Part shown: positions 14,769 to 52,422 of the stretch, piece by piece
Position numbering within the stretch: position 1 is the first letter of the stretch
Layout: each line of letters opens with the position of its first letter
Assembly (NCBI GenBank): GCA_016207565.1
Contig: JACQPK010000267.1
Span: forward strand, 1-58,428
Origin: Elusimicrobiota bacterium
GTDB taxonomy: Bacteria; Elusimicrobiota; Elusimicrobia; UBA1565; JACRDR01
Length of the DNA stretch: 58,428 nucleotides
Direction: 5' to 3'
Translations under genes and position numbers: made by a program
The notes under the pieces: model-generated
What the model saw: the letters and a program-made list of their open reading frames with translations, nothing else
Database searches by the model: none
What the model was told of the DNA's origin: nothing

Positions 14769-14799
14769 GTCTCATCGGGTGCGACGCACCCGATGAGAC
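14769..14799. repeat. 31-nt palindromic element, copy 1 (GTCTCATCGGGTGCGACGCACCCGATGAGAC)
   Basis: 14-bp perfect stem with a 3-nt loop. The outer flanks CGCTGAC/GTCAGCG (14761-14767 and 14802-14808) extend the palindrome across both convergent stop codons. Confidence 0.8.
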
Positions 14800-23954: not shown

Positions 23955-24491
23955 TCACTCGCCCAGCTTCTTATTCCCCGTCGGCGGCCCCTTCTTCGGC
24001 TTCTGCGGCGACATGCCGGGGATGGCCGCGAAGAGTCTAGGCGCGTCCAGGAAGTCGGCGGCACCACGAAAGCGCTCCAGGTAGGCGGCGAATTCGCGTT
24101 CGGTCTCGGGATAGCGCGTCAGACCGGTCCCGCTGAGGAGACTCAACTCGAGCCGGCCTCCCTCCACGCGATATTCGGCGGGCCACCAGCGACCCTCGGG
24201 AGATCCGTGGACATACCCGATCCACAATAGGTCGAACTCCTGCGCCGAGCTCCGGATGCGCGTCCGGACGGCATACAACCGTTTGGTCTGCCCGTCCTGG
24301 TACGTCGAGTCGATCTGATACGCGGACCCCTTTCGCGAGCTCACTTCGTGCCGGTCGCCATTCTCGTCCCATACGCCCACAAGGGAACCGTCGATCGGCT
24401 GCAACTGCCCAACGACGACGCTCGAGCCGCTCTTGATGCAGGCGGACGAGAGCGCGACAAGGACCAACAGCAGGGGAAGGTTTCTATTCAT
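23955..24491 (-). CDS. Lipoprotein, hypothetical
   Basis: MNRNLPLLLVLVALSSAC has a lipobox. CATCCT lies 6 nt before the ATG. Confidence 0.6.
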   Translation of the reverse strand: MNRNLPLLLVLVALSSACIKSGSSVVVGQLQPIDGSLVGVWDENGDRHEVSSRKGSAYQIDSTYQDGQTKRLYAVRTRIRSSAQEFDLLWIGYVHGSPEGRWWPAEYRVEGGRLELSLLSGTGLTRYPETEREFAAYLERFRGAADFLDAPRLFAAIPGMSPQKPKKGPPTGNKKLGE

Positions 24492-24710: not shown

Positions 24711-26033
24711 TCAATCCGCGGAACAGAGCGGAACGTTGGAGCCGAGCATGCACACGGTGCCCTCACTGCAGGACCCTCCGATCGACTGGTTCGACCGGCA
24801 GGGCGGCGGCATCGGGCTGAACGGCGCGACGTAGTCGTGATGCAGCTTGCCGGCCGGCCCGCAGGTCAGGGCGTTGCAGTTGCGCTTGACCACATCGAGG
24901 TAACCGTCCACCTTTTTGCCCGTGGTCGCGTCGGCGAGGATGAAGTGGGCCTTGATCTTGTTGTCGCCCCACATGCCCGCCTCGTAAGGGATCGTCCCTA
25001 TCCATTTGCCGTCCTTGTATTCCCAATGGTGGTTCCCCCAGTCCGCGCCGCCGTTGCGGCGCTTGAACGGCATGATGTAGTTCGTTCCGATCGACGCGCA
25101 GTAGCCGGAGGGACTCGTCCACTCGCCGCGGCGGTGGTCGAGGACCTCGTAGCAGACCGTCGTCTTCTCGGCTGCCAAGCCCGTGATCTCGTAGCGGATG
25201 GTCCGCGGATCGTTCATGTCGAACTCCGCCCGAGCCGGGGTGATGGCCGGCTCCCCGGCGGCCGCGATAGCGGCGTGCGATCCGATCCCTCCCGCGTGGG
25301 TGGAACCGGACGCCGACTTGAGGTCGTTCGAGGCCGCGCCCGAGGAGCCCAGCAGCCCCGCGGCGGCCGTCGTCGGGCCGGGAGTCCCCGCGGTCGTGGC
25401 GGCGGGCGCGGGCGCGCCGTGCTGCGAAGTCCCGGCGGCCGCGCTGCTGAACTTCGGCGCCCGCGTGTTGAGTCGGCTCAAGCGGTTGATCTGGGTCGGG
25501 ACGGCGCGCAACACGCCGACGGAGGACATCCGCTCGAGCCGGCGCTTCCCGGCCGCCGCCTTGGCCGCCTGGGGGATGCGCGCGGTCCTCGCGGCGAGGG
25601 CCGGCATCGCGAAGAAGGCGGTGGTCGCGGCGCCGAAGCCGGACCGGGCCGAGGCGGCCGAGCCCTGGCGCGCCGCGGCGATCGGCGCCGGCGCGTCGCG
25701 CAGCGCGGCCTCGGAACCGGCGTTCAGGCCCTCGATCGGGATCGGCGGCGGCTCGCCGATGCGGCCGGCGGGAGGCAACGGCCCCGCGGGCGAGCGGAGC
25801 GGAGCGAAGCCCGGCCCTTTCGCCGCGCGCGGCGCGGCAGGCTCGCGCGTTAACGCGGGCAGGCGGTCTCCGTCGAACTCGTAGGACGACAACGACGACC
25901 CGGCCGGAGCGGGTTGCGGCCAACGCACTCGGTCGGCGAGGTCGGGCGGCGGAGCGCCGATCGAGAGGACGACCCCCAACGCCGCCGCCGCGACGGCGGC
26001 GGCGCCCGAACGCCCGACCCATTCTTGGTTCAT
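24711..26033 (-). CDS. Membrane-anchored surface protein: shared N-module + type I Cys-rich C-terminal domain (geneC)
   Basis: TM segment AAAVAAAALGVVLSIG and a low-complexity linker with GFGAATTAFFA...GKRRLERMSSVGVLRAVPT. The C-terminal domain is paralogous to that of the 28718-29821 gene. Confidence 0.65.
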   Translation of the reverse strand: MNQEWVGRSGAAAVAAAALGVVLSIGAPPPDLADRVRWPQPAPAGSSLSSYEFDGDRLPALTREPAAPRAAKGPGFAPLRSPAGPLPPAGRIGEPPPIPIEGLNAGSEAALRDAPAPIAAARQGSAASARSGFGAATTAFFAMPALAARTARIPQAAKAAAGKRRLERMSSVGVLRAVPTQINRLSRLNTRAPKFSSAAAGTSQHGAPAPAATTAGTPGPTTAAAGLLGSSGAASNDLKSASGSTHAGGIGSHAAIAAAGEPAITPARAEFDMNDPRTIRYEITGLAAEKTTVCYEVLDHRRGEWTSPSGYCASIGTNYIMPFKRRNGGADWGNHHWEYKDGKWIGTIPYEAGMWGDNKIKAHFILADATTGKKVDGYLDVVKRNCNALTCGPAGKLHHDYVAPFSPMPPPCRSNQSIGGSCSEGTVCMLGSNVPLCSAD

Positions 26034-26043
26034 ATGCCCCCCT

Positions 26044-27546
26044 TCAACGGACGCCGACGGCTTTCTGCAGGACGCCGATCCTTCGGTCCAGCTCGCGGGC
26101 GATCTCCGCGTAGAGATGGCGCGCGTTGTCGGCGAGATCGGTGCGCCCGTGCGCGATCACGGGCGTGCGGCCGGCCTCCATGCGCTCGCGCGCCTCGCGG
26201 AGGCGGCGCTTGAACTCGCCCTGGCCCTCCGGCCAGTCCGCGCGCCAAAACGCGGTGCCGCCCCCCGTGCACGTATTCGAGGTCGATTGGGGGCCTTTGT
26301 CCATCTCGGCCTGGTATCCCATATAGTCGAGCTTCTTGAGCTCGGTCCACGCGCGGGCGTCGCCCGCGTTGCACGCGCTCAAGAGTTGAAACCAGTCCTG
26401 ATAGACCGGGTTCTGGCATCCAGGCGTCACGAGCAGCACGTTCGGGTCGATGACCGTGCGGCGGCAATCGGTCCAGAGGAAGAACTCGTTGGAGCCGGCA
26501 TACGGGAGGTACTCGTAGACGCGGTCCATCGGCGTGCGCTTCCAATCGGCCAGGAACACATCCCCGGCCTCGAAGCGCGCGTTCCGCGGGAGGCGAGCCG
26601 GCTCGGCGAGCCAGTCCGTCATGCGGATTCGAGCCTCGAGGAGTTGCCGCAAGGCGATGACCGCCAACGTCTCGGTGGGGCAGTCGCCGGAGGCAGGGCA
26701 CGTCCGCTGCGGCAGGGCCGCGAGGATCCGGTAATACTCGGCGAGCAGTTGCGCGTCCGACGGGAGCGCCCCCCCGGCCGGCGTCGAGCCCCTGGGCAAG
26801 GACCCCGCGGCGCCGGCGGAAACGGCTCCGCGTCCCCGAGTGACGGTATCCGACGAGCGTGCGTCTTCGCCCGAACGGGCCGCCGAAGCGCTCGAGCGTC
26901 CGGCCGCGCTCGCATCGGAGGAGCCCGCAGCGCCCGCGCCCAAGGACTTCGCCCCGGCGCTGGACCCGGCAAGAGCGGCCGAGCGGGCCGAGACCGCCGA
27001 AAGCCCGCCCAACGCGGGGAGCAGCGTCGGCGCGGTGCGCGCGACGCCGATCGAAGCGAGGCGCTTGAGCCGCTTCTTGGCGGCGGGCCGAGCGGGCTGG
27101 ACGACGGCGGCGGCCCGGGGCGCCTCGGCGGACACGGCGAGAAACGCGGAGCTCGCGCCGCCGAATCCGGCGTGCGCGACGACGCCGCCTTGGGCGGGAA
27201 CGGCGGCCGGGACGTCGCGGAGCGACTCGTCCACGTAGGCGGCGCCGGCCTGAGGCGGCGCGCTCCGGCCGCCGGCGCGGGCGACGGACGGGAACGTGGG
27301 TGAAAACGGCGTCCCGGCGACGGAGAAGGAGCCGGGCGCGGCCGACGGCGCCGGCGCCTCTGCGATCAGCTCGGGCAGGCGGTCGAACGGCTCGGGCTCC
27401 TCCGCGGGATCGACGGCGGCTCGCGCGGGCCACAACACCGGCTCCGCGCGCTCCTCGGCGGGCCGCTCCATCGAGAGCGCGACCCACAGGGCCGAGCCTC
27501 CGAGCGCGAGTCCCCAACCGGCGAGCCAGGTCTTCGTCATGATCAT
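26044..27546 (-). CDS. Membrane-anchored surface protein: shared N-module + type II Cys-rich C-terminal domain (geneB)
   Basis: Start MIMTKTWLAGWGLALGGSALWVAL overlaps the geneA stop (ATGA). Contains GFGGASSAFLA...AKKRLKRLASIGVARTAPT, then an unrelated ~250-aa domain with 8 Cys. The rest of the 953-aa ORF is a read-through artefact. Confidence 0.65.
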   Translation of the reverse strand: MIMTKTWLAGWGLALGGSALWVALSMERPAEERAEPVLWPARAAVDPAEEPEPFDRLPELIAEAPAPSAAPGSFSVAGTPFSPTFPSVARAGGRSAPPQAGAAYVDESLRDVPAAVPAQGGVVAHAGFGGASSAFLAVSAEAPRAAAVVQPARPAAKKRLKRLASIGVARTAPTLLPALGGLSAVSARSAALAGSSAGAKSLGAGAAGSSDASAAGRSSASAARSGEDARSSDTVTRGRGAVSAGAAGSLPRGSTPAGGALPSDAQLLAEYYRILAALPQRTCPASGDCPTETLAVIALRQLLEARIRMTDWLAEPARLPRNARFEAGDVFLADWKRTPMDRVYEYLPYAGSNEFFLWTDCRRTVIDPNVLLVTPGCQNPVYQDWFQLLSACNAGDARAWTELKKLDYMGYQAEMDKGPQSTSNTCTGGGTAFWRADWPEGQGEFKRRLREARERMEAGRTPVIAHGRTDLADNARHLYAEIARELDRRIGVLQKAVGVR

Positions 27547-28553
27547 CGCCCCGTGTAGCGGCGCCGGCAGGCCTCGTCCGCATTGCAGCGCCGCATGGCT
27601 TCCATGCACGCCGGGGTGACGTTCGCGCCCCGGCAGGCCTCGAGTCCGGTGACGCCGTTCTCCGCGCCGGTCTCGAGGACGCGCAGCAACTGGCGGCGCG
27701 ACTCGTCGTCCATGCGGCTCAAGAGCGCGGAGCTCTCCAGCCCCTCGACCTCTTGCGACTCTCCCGCGTCCTTCACCCTCGCCAGCTTCCAGTCGATGCC
27801 GCGAGCCTCCTGTCCTAGATCGCTTCGGCCGCGGACCTCCTCGTCGCGCAGGCCGTCGCCGGCGTTCTCTCCCGCCGCGCGGCGCGGACCGGCGCCGTAC
27901 GCGCTCGGCGCGTCCCGCAGATCCGTCGGCCGCTCGAGCGACGGGTTCGACGCGAGAAGGCGCCACGCGTTGCCGCTGTCGGAGCGGAATAGCCTCGCCT
28001 CGGCGGCCGCGCCCCGGACGACCGTCGCCGGGCGCGTCGCCGCGGCCCGCGGATACAACGACCGGCCGGACGCCGCGGACATGCCGGCGAGGGCCGAGGA
28101 GCGCTCTTGCGAGCGGGCCGGGCCCTGCCACCGCGCGCGGCCTTTCAGGGAGCCGGAGGCGTCCCACTCCATCGCCTTTCCTTCGTCCCACGCCGCGCCG
28201 GGAGCCGAGCGCGCCGCGGTCGGCTGCGCCTCCGCCGCCGCGCGCGAGGCGCCTAGCGCCGCCAACGAGGAACCGTTGCGCGGGCCGCCGCGCCGCCGGG
28301 CCGCGCCGGCCGCCGCCAGCGGCTCGCCGGCCGCGGTCCAGGCGGCGGCCGGACGCGCCGCGAAAAGCGGGCGGGGCGCCTCGAGCCTGCGGCCGACCGA
28401 GAACCGAGCGCCGTCCGCATCGGTCGTCCATAAGGCGAAGACCGCGCCGCTGGCCCCGCCTCCCAGCGAGAGGAGCGCCGCCAGGATGAGGAGCCGCCGA
28501 TCGGAACCGTCGGGCGGCACCGTCCTGCGCACCTGGATCATCGGCTCGTTCAT
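27543..28553 (-). CDS. Membrane-anchored low-complexity protein ending in C-x8-C-x6-C-x5-C (geneA)
   Basis: Start taken at MNEPMIQVRR...RLLILAALLSLGGGASGAVFALW. Cys motif CRGANVTPACMEAMRRCNADEAC is encoded at 27567-27635. Confidence 0.6.
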   Translation of the reverse strand: MNEPMIQVRRTVPPDGSDRRLLILAALLSLGGGASGAVFALWTTDADGARFSVGRRLEAPRPLFAARPAAAWTAAGEPLAAAGAARRRGGPRNGSSLAALGASRAAAEAQPTAARSAPGAAWDEGKAMEWDASGSLKGRARWQGPARSQERSSALAGMSAASGRSLYPRAAATRPATVVRGAAAEARLFRSDSGNAWRLLASNPSLERPTDLRDAPSAYGAGPRRAAGENAGDGLRDEEVRGRSDLGQEARGIDWKLARVKDAGESQEVEGLESSALLSRMDDESRRQLLRVLETGAENGVTGLEACRGANVTPACMEAMRRCNADEACRRRYTGR

Positions 28554-28559
28554 ACCGGC

Positions 28560-28588
28560 AGGATGCGCCGATCCCGAAGACCCCTCCA
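28560..28588 (-). promoter_or_regulatory. Promoter candidate TGGAGG-17-CATCCT, 6 nt before ATG 28553
   Basis: Read on the minus strand. It has the same TGGAG -35 box and spacing as the three upstream modules at 31270, 32861 and 38281. Confidence 0.4.
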
Positions 28589-28682
28589 CGAAAAAGCCGT
28601 TGACACCGGAATCTGTCGTAAAAACCGGAGCTTTTACGCCGGAAACCGTATTCGCACAAAATTCCTTCAGAGGCTCTCCGCC

Positions 28683-28711
28683 TTGCATTCCCACGCCGCG
28701 GACCGCATACT
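28683..28711 (+). promoter_or_regulatory. Promoter candidate TTGCAT-17-CATACT, 6 nt before ATG 28718
   Basis: Hexamers and spacing read directly. No Shine-Dalgarno is present. Confidence 0.4.
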
Positions 28712-28717
28712 TTCGCG

Positions 28718-29821
28718 ATGGCGCACGCCGCTTCGAAGCTCGACCTAAAAACCCTCGGCCTGCTCGCCGTCGTGGTGCTCCTGAGCATGCTCGCGGGGAC
28801 CGGGACGGTGCGCCTATTCCTCAAAGGGGGCGGGACCTCGAAGCCGAGCGCCGTAGACGTCACGGTCGCCCCCGAACCACCCGAGAAGAAGAGCGTCTTC
28901 GCCAAAGACGAGCCCGCCGGGGAGCCGGCGCCCCAAGCTCACGCCGAGGTGAAGGTGCCGGTGCTCCCGCTGCCGCCGACCCTGCCGCCCAAGCGCCGGA
29001 GGAAAATGCCGCCGCAGCCCGCTCCCGAGACCCCGGAGCCGCCCCAGATCGCGCCCGCGAACTTCTTCAACTACGGGATCGGGGAAGGGGTCGAGAAGTC
29101 GGGCGCGCGGTTGGACGTCCCCGCGGCCCCGGAGCGTCCGCGTCGCGAGCTTCAGCGCGTCCCGTCGATCGGCCAAGCCCGCCCGCGCAACGTCACGGGC
29201 GCCAAGCCCCCTTCCGTGCCTCGGCCGGAGGGAAGCGAGTTCAAATCCGCGAAGGCGTCCGGGGCCGCGCTCAAGGCGCATCTCAGCCGGATGTTCGGAG
29301 AGCCGGACGGGGCCCTGAGGGTGCCGCTGTCCAAGTTTACCACCGACACGCCCGGCGACGGCGAAGGGCGGACCGGCGAAAGCGGTCCGGCCCGAGGCAC
29401 GCCGGCGGGCGGGATCGACCCGCGGCTGCGGCGCATCAACAACGCCACGATCACCGACGAGGACGCGCAGAACCCCGCGATCGAGCCCCGCCACGCGACG
29501 TTCGACATGGCCGCGCCGCGGACGCTCCAGTACCGAGTGACCGACATCCCGAAAGAGCGCACCGTCGTCTGCTACGAGGTGCTCGCGCACCCCTGCTGCC
29601 CGGAGTGCGTCGGCCCCGGCAATCAATGCGAGAGCTCGGCGAACTACTCCTCGTTCAACGGGAACGCCGACTGGAGATACGAGGGCGGCGCCTGGCTCGG
29701 AACGTTGGTGTACGTCCCGGCGGCGTACGGCTGCGAGGGCATCCAGGTCCGCTTCGTCTTCGCCGACAAGCGGACCGGCAAACACGCCGGCGCCGGCATG
29801 AACGTCGTCAACGGCTACTGA
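28718..29821 (+). CDS. Membrane-anchored surface protein: diverged N-module + type I Cys-rich C-terminal domain
   Basis: TM segment LGLLAVVVLLSMLAG and the motif RPRRELQRVPSIGQARP. The C-terminal region ATFDMAAPRTLQYRVTDIPKERTVVCYEVLAH... aligns with geneC AEFDMNDPRTIRYEITGLAAEKTTVCYEVLDH... Confidence 0.65.
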   Translation: MAHAASKLDLKTLGLLAVVVLLSMLAGTGTVRLFLKGGGTSKPSAVDVTVAPEPPEKKSVFAKDEPAGEPAPQAHAEVKVPVLPLPPTLPPKRRRKMPPQPAPETPEPPQIAPANFFNYGIGEGVEKSGARLDVPAAPERPRRELQRVPSIGQARPRNVTGAKPPSVPRPEGSEFKSAKASGAALKAHLSRMFGEPDGALRVPLSKFTTDTPGDGEGRTGESGPARGTPAGGIDPRLRRINNATITDEDAQNPAIEPRHATFDMAAPRTLQYRVTDIPKERTVVCYEVLAHPCCPECVGPGNQCESSANYSSFNGNADWRYEGGAWLGTLVYVPAAYGCEGIQVRFVFADKRTGKHAGAGMNVVNGY

Positions 29822-31284
29822 TGCGGCTGACGACGAAGATCACGCTGCTGCAAACGGGTTTCGCCGCCGTCGTGCTGCTCGCGACGCTGCTTCCCTTGGT
29901 CGTTTCCGAACGGCGCCACGTGCGCGAGCTCGAGGAGAAGCGCCAGGCCGCGCAGGTGGAGCAGCTCGCCCGCGCCTGCGGCGAGGCGTTCAAGAGCCAA
30001 GACGAGGCCGCCGCGCTCGGCTATCTCAAGACGCTCGTGCTGGTCTCGCCGCCCGGCTCGATCAGCTACGGCGCCTTCCTCGACGCCGAGGGCCGGACGT
30101 GGCTCCACACCGAGTTCCTCCACGGCGGCCGCGCCTCGAAGGGGAAGCGCGCGGCGGACCCGCGCGTAGACGCGGCGCTCGCCTCGCCCGAAGGCGGGCG
30201 CTCGGGGAACCTCATCTGGGCCCCGGTATATTTCACCGGACCCGCCGGCCGCGAACGCCGCGGCACCGCGGTCATCGCCTACGACCCGGCCGCGGCCTCG
30301 CAAGCCCTCGGCGCGCTCCAACGCGACTCGCTCTCGAGGGTCGCGCAGGTAGCGTTGCCGGGCCTGGGCCTCGGGCTCCTGCTTGCGTTCGTGCTCGGCC
30401 GCGCGCTGGCGGAACCGATCCAGCGCTTGGCCTTCGGGACGCGCCGCGTCGGCGAAGGGAGGCTCGACACGCGGATCCCCGACGAGGGCTCCGACGAGCT
30501 CGGCGACCTGGCGCGGGACTTCAACGCGATGGCCGCCAAGCTCAACGAGCTCGACGAGCTCAAAGACAGCTTCCTAGCGCAGATCACGCACGACCTGCGC
30601 AACCCGCTTACGGCGATCATCGCGCACGTGAACGTGCTCGGCATGGGAATCCACGGACCCGTGAACGAGAAGCAGAAGAAGAACCTGGACCTCGTCCAAG
30701 AGAGCTCGCTTTACCTCAACGAGCTGATCGGCGACATCCTCGACCTGACCAAGCTCGAGGCGGGCAAGATGGAGTTCGCGCCGAAACCGGTGGACGCCCA
30801 CGCCGCGGCCCGCGCCGTACTCGACCTCAACTCCGCGCGGGCCGCGGAGTACGGCGTCGCGCTCGAGTGCGCCGTGCCCGAGGGCGCCTCCGTCACGGCC
30901 GACCCCGAAGGCCTAAAGCGCGTCCTCATCAACCTCGTCTCCAACGCGCTGAAGTTCACGCCCAAAGGCGGCAAGGTGACGGTCGGCCTCGCCTCGGTCA
31001 ACGGCTCGGACCGGATCTCGGTGTCCGACACCGGCATCGGGATCCCGGAGGACAAGCTCGGCCTCCTATTTAGGAAGTTCTCCCAGGTGGCCGAGACCAA
31101 GAACAAGGTGCGAGAGGCGGCCGGCACCGGCCTCGGGCTCGTCATCTGCAAGCAGATCGTGGAGGCCCACGGCGGCACGATCGGCGTCGAGAGCGTCTAC
31201 CGGAAGGGCACGACGTTCTTCTTCCACCTTCCCAAGGCCCCCCGGCCGGAAGACCCCGCCGTTCCCTCCCTCAAAGACGGCTGA
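29821..31284 (+). CDS. HAMP domain-containing sensor histidine kinase
   Basis: The start shares one nt with the previous stop (TGATG). Two TM segments flank a ~150-aa periplasmic region. Has HAMP, an H-box FLAQITHDLRNPLTAI, and HATPase GTGLGLVICKQIVEAHGGTIGVES. Confidence 0.9.
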   Translation: MRLTTKITLLQTGFAAVVLLATLLPLVVSERRHVRELEEKRQAAQVEQLARACGEAFKSQDEAAALGYLKTLVLVSPPGSISYGAFLDAEGRTWLHTEFLHGGRASKGKRAADPRVDAALASPEGGRSGNLIWAPVYFTGPAGRERRGTAVIAYDPAAASQALGALQRDSLSRVAQVALPGLGLGLLLAFVLGRALAEPIQRLAFGTRRVGEGRLDTRIPDEGSDELGDLARDFNAMAAKLNELDELKDSFLAQITHDLRNPLTAIIAHVNVLGMGIHGPVNEKQKKNLDLVQESSLYLNELIGDILDLTKLEAGKMEFAPKPVDAHAAARAVLDLNSARAAEYGVALECAVPEGASVTADPEGLKRVLINLVSNALKFTPKGGKVTVGLASVNGSDRISVSDTGIGIPEDKLGLLFRKFSQVAETKNKVREAAGTGLGLVICKQIVEAHGGTIGVESVYRKGTTFFFHLPKAPRPEDPAVPSLKDG

Positions 31285-31388
31285 AACGATCCTCCCTCAG
31301 CCTGAAAATACTCCGAAAAGTAATGCGGTAACACCGTTCAGCGCCAAGTTTATGGAGACCGCGCCCGCCTCGGGCTACCGTAAGGCCA
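31270..31388 (+). promoter_or_regulatory. Conserved upstream module, copy A (boxes 1-5; -35 TGGAGA 31353-31358, -10 TACCGT 31376-31381)
   Basis: Colinear with the copies at 32861 and 38281. Box 1 overlaps the kinase stop codon. Confidence 0.55.
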
Positions 31389-32761: not shown

Positions 32762-32845
32762 GCTAGTGCGGCCTTGATCGGCCAGCGCGAGCGCGCGGTA
32801 GCGCCGCGTCTGCGCGTCATCTTCGATGAAGAGGGTCGTCTTTCC
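32762..32845 (-). pseudogene. Fragment of an OmpR-type response regulator N-terminus
   Basis: GKTTLFIEDDAQTRRYRALALADQGRT aligns with the intact regulator GKTILMIEDDGNTRRAFAAALASLGHRV (36116-36799). There is no start codon, and similarity stops after ~28 codons. Confidence 0.45.
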
Positions 32846-32860
32846 TTGAGCCCTGGGGCT

Positions 32861-32974
32861 CTCAAAGACCGCTGAAACCGTCCCGCGCCCCCTGGAAATA
32901 GACGAAATTTCCGGCGAAATCCGTTCAGAGAAGAATGCGTGGAAGCGGCGCGGCGGCCGGGCTACCCTGCGAGC
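32861..32974 (+). promoter_or_regulatory. Conserved upstream module, copy B (-35 TGGAAG 32940-32945, -10 TACCCT 32963-32968, ATG 32975)
   Basis: Colinear with copies A and C. The -10 is followed by exactly 6 nt and then ATG, with no SD. Confidence 0.55.
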
Positions 32975-36115: not shown

Positions 36116-36799
36116 CTAGGAGAAGTAGCGGAAGCCCTTGCCGGGGACGGCCTGGAGCCGGTCCGCCAGGGACTGCGGGAGCTTGCGGCGCAGCTTCGAC
36201 ATGTGAGCGTCGACGAGGTTGTCGACGGCGACCGTCCGCCAGAGCGTCGAGAGGATCCACTCGCGGCTGAGCACCTTCGGCCGCTTCTTCACGAGCGCGT
36301 AGAAAAGGTCGAACTCCTTGGCGGTGAGGTTCGGAATCGTGACGTCGCCGAACTTTACGAGATGCGCGGCGGGGTCGATGGTCAGGTCGCCGGCCTCGAG
36401 CTGCCCCCCCTCGTCCTTGTCGAGCGCGAGGCGGTTCATGAGCGCCTGCGCCCAGAGGAGCAGCTCCTGCGGGAGGACGGGCTTCACGAGGTACTGGTCC
36501 GCGCCGGACTCGAAGCCCTCCTTCTTCTCGTCGAGCTGTCCCTTGCCGGTGAGCATGATCACCGGCGTCGCGTGAAGCGTCTTGTGCGCGCGGACCTTCT
36601 TGCAGAAATCGTAGCCCGTGCCGTCGGGGAGCCCCACGTCGAGCACGATGAGGTCGGGCTTCTCCGTCTGGAAGAGGTGGTAGCCGACCTCGATCCCCTC
36701 GGACTCCAGCACGCGATGGCCGAGGCTGGCGAGCGCCGCGGCGAACGCGCGGCGCGTGTTGCCGTCGTCCTCGATCATCAGGATCGTCTTGCCCGCCAT
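36116..36799 (-). CDS. OmpR/PhoB-type response regulator
   Basis: Receiver domain (ILMIEDD...DLIVLDVGLPDGTG...MLTGKG) plus a winged-helix C-terminus (LTAKEFDLFYAL...VDAHMSKLRRKL...GKGFRY). TATACT lies 8 nt before the ATG. Confidence 0.9.
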   Translation of the reverse strand: MAGKTILMIEDDGNTRRAFAAALASLGHRVLESEGIEVGYHLFQTEKPDLIVLDVGLPDGTGYDFCKKVRAHKTLHATPVIMLTGKGQLDEKKEGFESGADQYLVKPVLPQELLLWAQALMNRLALDKDEGGQLEAGDLTIDPAAHLVKFGDVTIPNLTAKEFDLFYALVKKRPKVLSREWILSTLWRTVAVDNLVDAHMSKLRRKLPQSLADRLQAVPGKGFRYFS

Positions 36800-38233: not shown

Positions 38234-38280
38234 GCGCCGATTCTAGGACTTTGGGCCCGGCTTGTGCAAACGGACCGGGA

Positions 38281-38395
38281 CTCAATAAGCGCTGAACCCC
38301 ACAGGTGGAGACGCCAAAATCGTTGAATTCATTACATTTTCACGTTGAGCGCTGTTTGGTTGGAGTCCCCGAAGTGCGGGGGCTAGACTATCCGC
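38281..38395 (+). promoter_or_regulatory. Conserved upstream module, copy C (-35 TGGAGT 38361-38366, -10 TAGACT 38384-38389, ATG 38396)
   Basis: Colinear with copies A and B. The -10 is followed by exactly 6 nt and then ATG, with no SD. Confidence 0.55.
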
Positions 38396-43980: not shown

Positions 43981-46900
43981 TCACGATTCTATCACTTGGC
44001 CGGTGCGCAAGAACACGAGCTTGAACCCGCACGGCTTGCCGAGGGCACGCCGGACGGCCTCGCGATAGACCTCGGCCTGCACCGCGTGGCGTTTGACGAG
44101 CGCCGCAAGCTCCCGATCGGACACGCGCTCGGTCTTGTAGTCGGCGATCCAGAGCTTGCCGCCGGCGCGATACAGGAGGTCGATCGAGCCGCGGACGACC
44201 TGGCCGCCGTCCGCGTAGATGAACGGCAACTCCCGGCCCAGGATCACCGCCCGGGCGAGCTCGCGCGCCGCCTTCGACGCGATGAAGTCCCCGAGGATCG
44301 CGCGGCACTCGTCGCCGATCGCGGCGGCGTCGGCCGCTCCCTCGCGTTCGACCCTGGCGACCTCCCGCGCGACGGCCTCCCGCAGTCTCACCTGGTGCGT
44401 CGCACCGGATGAGACGGCGAAGTCCCAGCGCTCGAGCACGCGGTGGCACACGACGCCGACGAGCCGGGGCGAGGCGCCGGCCGGCGCGTCCTCGGCCCGC
44501 TCGAAGCCGGCCCGCGCCGGCGGCTTGTCCTCGAGGGCCGCGAGACGGGTCGCGCTCGTCGACGCCGGGCGCTCGGCCGCGGCCGCCGACGCCCATCTAG
44601 CCTTCCAGAGCGCGCCGAGCCCCGTGAGGTCGATCGCCGTCGCGGGAGCGGCGCGCGACGGCGCGGACGGGGCCGGCTCCTCGTCGAGATAGGCGATCGG
44701 GACCCGCCGGCCGCCGAGCGTGAGCGCCTCCGGCGCGTCGTCGCCCGGCCAGGCCCCCGCGCGCGCGAGCAAGCCCGCGAAGCTCGCCTCGCTCCCGGGG
44801 GAGAGCGAGCCCGCGAGGATCAGGCGGTCGCGCGCGCGCGTCATCGCGACGTAGAGCAGCCTCACGCCTTCGTAGCGCTCCCGGCGCGCCTCCTCGAGCT
44901 TCAAAAACCCCATCGCCGCGTCGGCCGCCTTGGCCTTCGGCAGCGAGAGGCCGACCGCGCCCGCCGTCCAATCGACCCTCGAGGCGGGCGGGTCGCCTCC
45001 GCCCGGAGGCGCCGCGAGGTTCGGCAGGATGACCACGGGCCACTCGAGGCCCTTCGACTTGTGGACCGAGAGGATGCGCACCGCGTCGAGATGCTCGTCG
45101 GCGAGCGGGCTCTCGCCTTCCCGGGCGAAGTCCTTCATCTCCCGCTCCACGAGGCCGATGAACTCCTTGAGCGTCGCGCCGCGCTCCTCGGCGGCGCGGG
45201 AGGCGAGCCGCGCGAACTTCAGCAGGTTCGAGGCGGTCTGGTCCCCGTAGTAGGCCGCCGAGGCGAGCTCGAGGAGGAACGTCTCGCGGAAGACGCGGGC
45301 GACGAAGTCGCCGAGCGGCTCGCGCCCGGCCCGCTCCCGGAGCCCCCGCAGGGCCGCATACAGCGTCGTCAGCCGCGCGCGGGCCGCCGCGCCCAGGGCG
45401 CGAGGCGGATCGCGGCGATAGTCCATGCCGGACGCCTCGCGCAGCTCGAGCAGCTCCCGGTCGTCGAGGCCCGCGAGCGGCGAGCGCAGAAGCCCCGCCA
45501 TCGACACGCGGTCGCCGGGCTCGTCGAGGACCCGGAGGAGGTTGAGCAGGTCGAGCGCCTCCTGCGTGCCGTAGAAGTAGCGGTCGGCCTCGACGGCGTA
45601 GGGGAGGCCGGCGCGCTTCAACGCGTCAAGGTAGACCTCGAGCGACGTCGTGGTCCGAAGCAGGATCGCGACGTGCCGGAACTCATACGCCCTTCCCGGC
45701 CCCGCGTTTTCCGCGATCCACCGCGCGATCCATTCGGCCTCGCGCCCGCGGCCGTCGTCGGCTCGCTCCCCGTCGCGCAGCCGCGCGACGACGAGCTCGA
45801 CGGCCGTGCCGTCGAGCGCGGCCCTCATCGGCTGGATCGCCAAATATCCCGGCTGCAGCCCGGCCTCGAGCGTCATGAGCCTCTCGTGCACCGCGTTCAC
45901 GGGATCGACGACGCCGTCGTGGCCGCGGAAGCTCGTCGTGAGGTCGCATCGCTCGGCCCCTTGCGCGAGCAGGAGCTCGGTGAAGCCGTGGTAGGCGCGC
46001 ATGTCGGCGCCGCGAAAGCGGTAGATCGACTGCTTCGGGTCGCCGACGACGAAGAGCTTCCCCGCCTCGAGGCTCAGCTCGCGCCAGGAGGAGGCGCGGG
46101 CCCCCCGGCGCTCCCCGAGGTAGAGCAGCAGCTCCCCCTGCACCGGGTCGGTGTCCTGGAACTCGTCGATAAATAACGCGTCCCAACGAGCCTTGAGCGC
46201 CTCGCGCACGGCGGGGTGGTCGCGCACGAGGTCGCGCGCGCGCCGGAGCAGCCCGAAGTACGAGACGAGGCCGCGGCGCCGGTGCCGCTCGCGCACGCGC
46301 GCCGAGAGGCCCTCGACCAGCTCGACGGCCCGCCGCACGAGCCGCTCGCCGTCGCCGGAGGTCGCGGCGCACAGGACCGTCGCCTCCCGGTAGGCCGCCT
46401 CGTCGGGATCGCCCTCCCAGGCCTTCGGCCACGTGTAGGCCTTGACCTTCCGGAACTCGTAACGCTCCGGCCAGGCGCCGCGGCCCGCGCACGCGGAGGC
46501 GAGGTCCTTGAGCCGGGCGGCGGCCTCGGCCGCCCCCTCCAGGATCTTGCTGGCGCCGCCGGGGCGCGGCTTGGAGCCGAAGCCCTCGAGCGTCGCGGCG
46601 AGCCTGCCCAGCCGCTCGCGCATCGCGGCCGTCGCGCCCGGCGCGGCCTGGCAGGTCTCCTCCTCGCAGAGCGACCGGGCCAGCGTCTCGAGGTCCGCCA
46701 AGCCGACCAGCGGGAGCAGCGAGAGCCACAGGCCCCGCCGGGGAGCCGCCTCGCCGAGCTCCGCGTCGAGCCACGCGGCCCACTCGCTCTCGAAGAGCTC
46801 CTGCAGCCCGGGGCCGGTGTCCACGTCGAAGCCGGGGTCGACGCCCGCCTCGAGCGGGTGGAGCCGGAGCACGTGCGAGGCGAAGTGGTGGATCGTGCCG

Positions 46901-52391: not shown

Positions 52392-52422
52392 GTCTCATCT
52401 GGTGCGACGCACCAGATGAGAC
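52392..52422. repeat. 31-nt palindromic element, copy 2 (GTCTCATCTGGTGCGACGCACCAGATGAGAC)
   Basis: It differs from copy 1 only at the two paired stem positions (G:C changed to T:A). It starts 2 nt after the GNAT stop. Confidence 0.8.

Follow-up and report, generated by a model that had tools for sequence, protein, structure and literature searches.

Introduction

Leaderless promoters of the sigma-70 type, in which a TANNNT -10 hexamer lies about 6-7 nt before the start codon, are known in Actinobacteria and Deinococcus. The promoter region that is described here has the same geometry, and a -10-like hexamer is enriched at 6-7 nt in its genome; it differs in that the lineage is Elusimicrobia and in that its own hexamer, CATCCT, begins with C and belongs to a weaker class. 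A further likeness is to the control regions bound by OmpR/PhoB-family regulators, of which the PmrA box, CTTAAT-N5-CCTAAG, is an example (PMC3973317). The full copies of the promoter module discussed below carry a PmrA-like box 1, in which CTCAAA and CTGAAA stand head to tail 5 bp apart, and an OmpR-type regulator and a kinase are both encoded nearby. Unlike in the PmrA and Pho boxes, the region under study keeps the first hexamer only, and the candidate boxes lie at about -105 from the -10, off the -35. The locus also resembles divergent autoregulated two-component regions, where likewise an operon with a kinase gene and a target operon diverge from a single short spacer, and this layout is found again at the four regulator paralogs with module-like regions named below. 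Here, however, the divergent operon contains the kinase only and the intact regulator is encoded 7.5 kb away.

The window, meaning the whole stretch of 58,428 nt that was analyzed, is contig C151 of the metagenome-assembled genome G000 (4.95 Mb, 519 contigs, 70% GC). We looked at the region upstream of geneA, labeled D (window 28554-28700, minus strand), which an earlier note on this DNA had read as a diverged copy of a module found in full upstream of three other genes (copies A, B and C). Based on our comparisons, D is most likely an eroded homologue in a family of control regions that is larger than three copies. The features are collected in Table 1.

Table 1. Features of the geneA spacer, its flanking operons and related control regions (window positions unless a contig of G000 is named).
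Feature	Position	Strand	Remark
geneA-geneB-geneC operon	24711..28553	-	three genes in order
geneA	27543-28553	-	
geneB	26044-27546	-	ATGA overlap with geneA
geneC	24711-26033	-	
Operon of 28718 gene and HAMP histidine kinase	28718..31284	+	
HAMP histidine kinase	29821-31284	+	downstream of 28718 gene
geneA ATG, proposed start of leaderless mRNA	28551..28553	-	G001 ortholog aligns from residue 1
-10 hexamer CATCCT	28560..28565	-	6 nt before ATG 28553; CGCATCCTG identical in G001 ortholog
Extended -35 block TTTTCGTGGAGG	28583..28594	-	includes TGGAGG 28588-28583; 12 nt identical in G001
"Box 3-like" string TCAACGGC	28596..28603	-	weak match to GTTCAG
Palindrome CGTAAAA-N8-TTTTACG	28617..28638	.	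not conserved in G001
TTTCCGGCGTAAA, with 9-mer in common with copy B	28633..28645	-	chance level, not colinear
"Box 1-like" string CTCTGAAGG	28672-28664	-	
Conserved block GCCTCTGAAGGAAT	28661..28674	-	contains CTGAAG at -105; 13/14 nt identical in G001
Divergent promoter, TTGCAT 28683-28688, 17 nt, CATACT 28706-28711, 6 nt, ATG 28718	28683..28720	+	
Module copy A	31266..31388	+	upstream of C1 peptidase gene
Module copy B	32857..32974	+	ends at ATG 32975 of 77-aa ORF
Module copy C	38276..38395	+	ends at ATG 38396
OmpR/PhoB-family response regulator	36116..36799	-	candidate binding protein; Pfam Response_reg and Trans_reg_C
Firm family member	C231:2182-2302		
Firm family member, back-to-back pair	C196:2338-2462	-	
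Firm family member, back-to-back pair	C196:2544-2667	+	
Firm family member	C16:14536-14656		
Candidate family members	C196:4317-4436, C243, C292, C89, C360, C30, C468		

The spacer and its two promoters

The two operons stand back to back and are separated by 164 nt (window 28554-28717) with a GC content of 57%. The products of geneA, geneB and geneC are all membrane-anchored or exported, and no Pfam family was found for any of them. The frame of geneA can be extended to a GTG at 28694, but this extension has a GC3 of 0.51 versus 0.90 in the flanking gene bodies; based on this contrast the spacer is non-coding. An Rfam search of the spacer region matched no family. D lies 2.7 kb from module copy A, beside the kinase operon.

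When the sequence was re-read, every string that the earlier note had listed was found again at its position. TGGAGG and CATCCT are spaced by 17 nt, and D has what is expected of a leaderless sigma-70-type promoter: a -10 at 5-8 nt from the start codon, no Shine-Dalgarno sequence and a -35 at 16-18 nt. TGGAGG agrees with TTGACA at 3/6 positions. On the plus strand the proposed promoter of the 28718/kinase operon was confirmed to be present, and its -10, CCGCATACT, is identical in the genome of a sister species (G001), whose -35 reads TTGAAA here and is likewise 17 nt away. The conserved block at 28661..28674 is also situated 8 nt upstream of the -35 of this plus-strand promoter. Both promoters are weak by the Escherichia coli consensus, and a generic promoter scan of the spacer found neither, TGGAGG scoring below its threshold. 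Judged as phylogenetic footprints, both predicted promoters are real, since the elements are kept while the filler between them has diverged in G001.

Two repeat-like features of the window can be mentioned here. A near-perfect 30-bp palindrome, GTCTCATCTGGTGCGwCGCACCAGATGAGAC, occurs at 14769-14799, 44385-44415 and 52392-52422; it has 16 copies in the genome, mostly intergenic, and resembles a repeat family of the REP or terminator kind. At 24127-24257 (+) there is a weak match to the hammerhead type I family (22.5 bits, where the gathering score is 34; E 0.17), which is probably noise.

Predicted leaderless starts across the genome

In G000, TANNNT peaks 6-7 nt before the ATG or GTG that opens long GC3-rich ORFs, at 5-6 times background, with peak rates of 10.4 and 9.4 per 1000 ATG compared with a background of about 1.5-2. 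Between 624 and 798 genes were obtained as leaderless candidates, and roughly 15% of the genes of G000 appear leaderless. In a full-text literature search, no report of leaderless genes in Elusimicrobia came up. Generic -10 hexamers stand in the context tGC-TAnnnT, and CANNNT, the class to which the CATCCT of D belongs, is only about 2-fold enriched genome-wide at the 6-nt gap. The generic -35 is TTGAC (65 candidates, as against 1-5 in position-shifted controls), whereas TGGAG at the -35 is a minority variant (16 candidates, as against 3-7).

Leaderless geometry had been listed among the shared features of the module. As some 800 candidate genes share it, it is generic in this genome and is no sign that D belongs with the module. 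The argument from the TGGAG -35 holds in part: the box is present and a T tract followed by TGGRG is common to the family, but, as a minority variant, it ties D to the module weakly.

The module family

Seven firm control regions of the family were found in G000, and at least 12 if weaker candidates are counted, the latter having been assigned by iterated profiles, a procedure that may slide towards features common to promoters in general. The module is thus not a set of three or four copies, as had been proposed. A member starts with CTSAAA-N5-CTGAAA (box 1), followed by a second A-rich pair and an inverted CTGAAC (box 3), and ends with a T tract, TGGRG, 17-18 nt, gGCTAYCCT and, after about 6 nt, the start codon. 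The T tract followed by TGGRG is common to D and other members. The -35 hexamers of the family vary (TGGAGA, TGGGCG, TAGAGG, TTGGCC), and the -10 hexamers end in CCT in 8 of 14 members versus 13% generically. A hydrophobic N-terminus is encoded by 13/14 family genes, compared with 36% of the generic leaderless genes.

One module-like leaderless promoter, at C243:6648-6777 (-), precedes a gene for a membrane-anchored protein with a DLRDAPA motif like that of geneB and geneC, and this protein may belong to the same surface-protein family. A match of the box 1 matrix on contig C102 was discarded, as it falls in a tRNA region. TGAAAC-N17-AAAATA, considered as an upstream promoter within the module, was also rejected, as it is not kept in the G001 copies.

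Comparison of D with the module

The motif and covariance-model scan that had been proposed as a check was run, and D was not detected. An nhmmer profile of copies A, B and C left D unmatched at E<=10 in both the window and the genome, and the sequence-only covariance model R1, with its filters off, left it unmatched at E<=10 in 82 kb. With a 9-sequence profile, none of whose members was chosen through D, the region gets 3.4 bits (E about 620). On an 18-nt box 1 matrix the string of D that was described as box 1-like scores 0.0 bits versus 22-30 bits in the true copies. On a 31-nt matrix that is anchored on the -10 and covers box 3, the T tract and the -35, D scores 7.1 bits and ranks 15/798; among the 793 non-training leaderless promoter regions it is 10th, i.e., in the top 1.3%.

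The string match between D and copy B also proved uninformative. The 9-mer TTTCCGGCG that they have in common is not colinear, with 57 nt between it and the -35 in D but 32 nt in copy B, and a match of 9 nt or longer with A, B or C is obtained in 14% of shuffles and in 27% of generic leaderless promoter regions. The earlier idea that the elements of D stand with extra spacing does not hold overall, since 81 nt separate the first box and the -35 in D versus 78-83 nt in copies A and B. CTGAAG in D is at -105 from the -10, and half-site 1 of five other copies is at -102 to -106. D has the T tract with a TGGRG -35 and the colinear overall length of a module. It shows no significant profile similarity, and neither the tandem CTSAAA-N5-CTGAAA of box 1 nor a box 3, which in the module reads GTTCAG and lies some 13 nt ahead of the -35, is present. 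Box 3 and GCTGAAAC, the second half-site of box 1, are the best-conserved parts of the module. At the position of box 3 D has GTCAAC, and the GTCAGAG of the G001 ortholog matches better.

The orthologous spacer in the sister genome

G001 (3.2 Mb) is the only sister species genome that was compared. It encodes a geneA ortholog with about 49-52% identity, the alignment beginning at residue 1, and the region upstream of it is called here Dg. Four blocks of 9-14 nt are conserved in Dg with their spacing unchanged, while the sequence between them has diverged. TTTTCGTGGAGG, 17 diverged nt, CGCATCCTG, 5 nt and ATGAACGAGCC follow one another, GCCTnTGAAGGAAT stands exactly 81 nt upstream of TGGAGG, as in D, and CCGCATACT, the -10 of the divergent promoter, is kept as well. 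At exactly this distance from TGGAGG, CTGAAGGAA is found in D and in the C231 member, and ATGAAGGAA in Dg. D has eroded further than Dg, in which the second half-site still reads CTGACG, box 2 GTGAAAA and box 3 GTCAGAG.

Dg lies outside the material on which the earlier note was based and can therefore serve as an independent test of the relation to the module. A model built from A, B and C only, searched against G001, gives Dg 16.5-16.6 bits (E 0.017 per genome) as its third best match; the two matches above it are clear module copies (C238:5658-5774 and C309:4591-4705). With the 9-sequence profile Dg reaches 18.2 bits (E 0.015). In the reciprocal direction, the three best matches to Dg as a single query against G000 are D, which is colinear along its entire length, the copy on C231 and copy B; a joint profile built from D and Dg finds C231, C243 and copy B again. 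It is these scores and reciprocal searches, and not D itself, that relate the geneA control region to the module. The claim that D is a diverged module copy thus stands as far as the relation is concerned, which is shown through the G001 ortholog, and falls short for D itself, which is not detected and has neither a complete box 1 nor box 3.

In G001 the divergent operon consists of a geneA paralog, the 28718 ortholog and a kinase ortholog (75% identity). This order, opening with the geneA paralog (MSEPEIQLRRK...), combines G001:C144 (6536-6606) with G001:C270 (1-3445) and assumes that the end of C144 joins the start of C270. On this assumption the two spacers are orthologous, and the kinase operon is served by the spacer in G001 as in G000. 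G000 does not have this leading geneA paralog, yet the -10 CCGCATACT is the same in both genomes.

The search for other relatives was less productive. No relatives of geneA were found in the metagenome contigs or the genome contigs that were searched, and in a set of 5.8 billion proteins the G001 protein was the only relative found, so there are no further orthologous spacers to compare. When copy A by itself was used as a blastn query against relatives, only noise from the GC-rich spacer came back, and even copies B and C were missed. G001 also has a weak homolog of the Cys-rich protein, whose gene has a Shine-Dalgarno sequence and no module.

Regulators of the OmpR/PhoB type

The response regulator encoded at 36116-36799 has at least 11 paralogs in G000, at 40-67% identity. 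This expanded OmpR-type subfamily is spread over contigs C196, C292, C42, C434, C389, C236, C76, C118, C324 and C506, and several of its members are preceded by predicted leaderless TATACT promoters. Module-like regions are found 30-103 nt upstream of regulator paralogs, and divergent from them, on C292, C76, C506 and G001:C238; in the C292 and G001:C238 cases, 4 nt separate the end of the reversed box 1 from the TATACT -10 of the regulator gene. A module-like match at most 103 nt upstream occurs in 3/12 regulator paralogs, where 0.1-0.7 would be expected depending on the null, a modest enrichment that may point to linkage of regulators and modules. Next to D itself there is a kinase only and not a regulator. 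Copies A and B adjoin a kinase 3' end and an apparent regulator gene fragment. The minus strand at 32762-32845 translates to GKTTLFIEDDAQTRRY, which resembles the intact regulator at its N-terminus and lacks a start codon, and it looks like a remnant of a regulator gene beside copy B.

Discussion

In our judgment D is probably an ordinary promoter region, an eroded homologue of a genus-specific family of control regions, which sits in a bidirectional leaderless spacer. In this mechanism two weak sigma-70-type promoters would fire outward from the 164-bp spacer, one into geneA-B-C on the minus strand and one into the 28718/kinase operon on the plus strand, and both transcripts would be leaderless because a -10 hexamer stands 6 nt before each ATG. 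D would be derived from control regions of 120-165 bp with CTSAAA hexamers spaced by 11 bp, of the kind that OmpR/PhoB-type regulators bind; such regions would drive genes for exported proteins, often beside paralogous regulator genes. Of such a region D retains the core of the promoter and a single hexamer (CTGAAG, at -105), the second half-site and box 3 having been lost. With a -35 as poor as TGGAGG, preceded by a T tract, the geneA promoter is expected to depend on an activator, for which a response regulator of the expanded OmpR-type family is the best candidate. Relative to geneA the conserved hexamer block stands at about -116, relative to the kinase operon at -44 to -57, and from these positions it could equally serve autoregulation of the kinase operon. 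The transcription starts, the binding of a response regulator and activation by it, and any co-regulation of geneA-B-C with copies A, B and C are inferences.

One option that goes further is that a cassette of a regulator gene and a 120-165-bp bidirectional leaderless region was duplicated as a unit many times in the genus, with D, A and B standing at different stages of erosion. We regard this as possible rather than probable; if it is true, the duplications would have brought a lineage-specific set of Cys-rich exported proteins under a whole range of paralogous regulators.

Other explanations have to be weighed against an eroded homologue. D could be a generic housekeeping pair of leaderless promoters, its likeness to the module being due to chance and promoter grammar and the signal of Dg being coincidental or specific to G001. 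This is what one would read from D itself, which no module profile matches, whose individual strings are at chance level and whose leaderless geometry is generic. Yet Dg is the third best match in a 3.2-Mb genome, exactly at the predicted place and strand, the reciprocal search ranks D, C231 and copy B on top, the proximal region of D is within the top 1.3%, and the block at 81 nt from TGGAGG is present in all of D, Dg and C231, which makes the generic pair unlikely. At the other extreme, and in line with the earlier note, D would be a fully functional fourth copy, through which one regulator co-regulates geneA-B-C, the peptidase and the Cys-rich genes. We find this decidedly unlikely: the TGGAGG with its T tract, the conserved hexamer at -105, the colinear spacing and the place of D near copy A and the kinase operon all fit it, but D has lost the second half-site and box 3, and at least 12 paralogous regulators share 40% identity or more, so related control regions need not share one regulator.

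It is very improbable that TGGAG marks the promoters of an alternative sigma factor, with D and the modules forming its regulon, and this candidate was rejected. A TGG -35 and a CCT -10 are not associated genome-wide (Fisher p 0.72), the -10 and its GC context agree with the generic consensus and the -35 hexamers vary within the family; what speaks for such a regulon is the minority status of the TGGAG variant and the excess of -10 hexamers ending in CCT. Scarcely credible, finally, is a start of geneA at GTG 28694 or a long structured leader on its mRNA, in which case the "module" would be coding sequence or an RNA element. The frame is indeed open back to this GTG and the minus strand folds to -50 kcal/mol. 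However, the GTG start was ruled out on the GC3 contrast, and the protein alignment with the ortholog begins at the ATG; an RNA element in the spacer was ruled out since Rfam gave no match and the palindrome at 28617..28638 is not conserved in G001, which also means that this palindrome is probably not functional.

The reading of D as an eroded homologue implies no new mechanism, and the family is a normal small regulatory family rather than a new kind of element. The case also carries a caution, namely that short-string likeness between promoter regions in a genome of 70% GC is mostly chance; here the orthologous spacer of a sister genome was the one informative test. For uncultured Elusimicrobia the analysis gives a testable map of promoter grammar, with leaderless starts, a weak -35 and upstream hexamer repeats, and it connects orphan exported proteins to a family of two-component systems.
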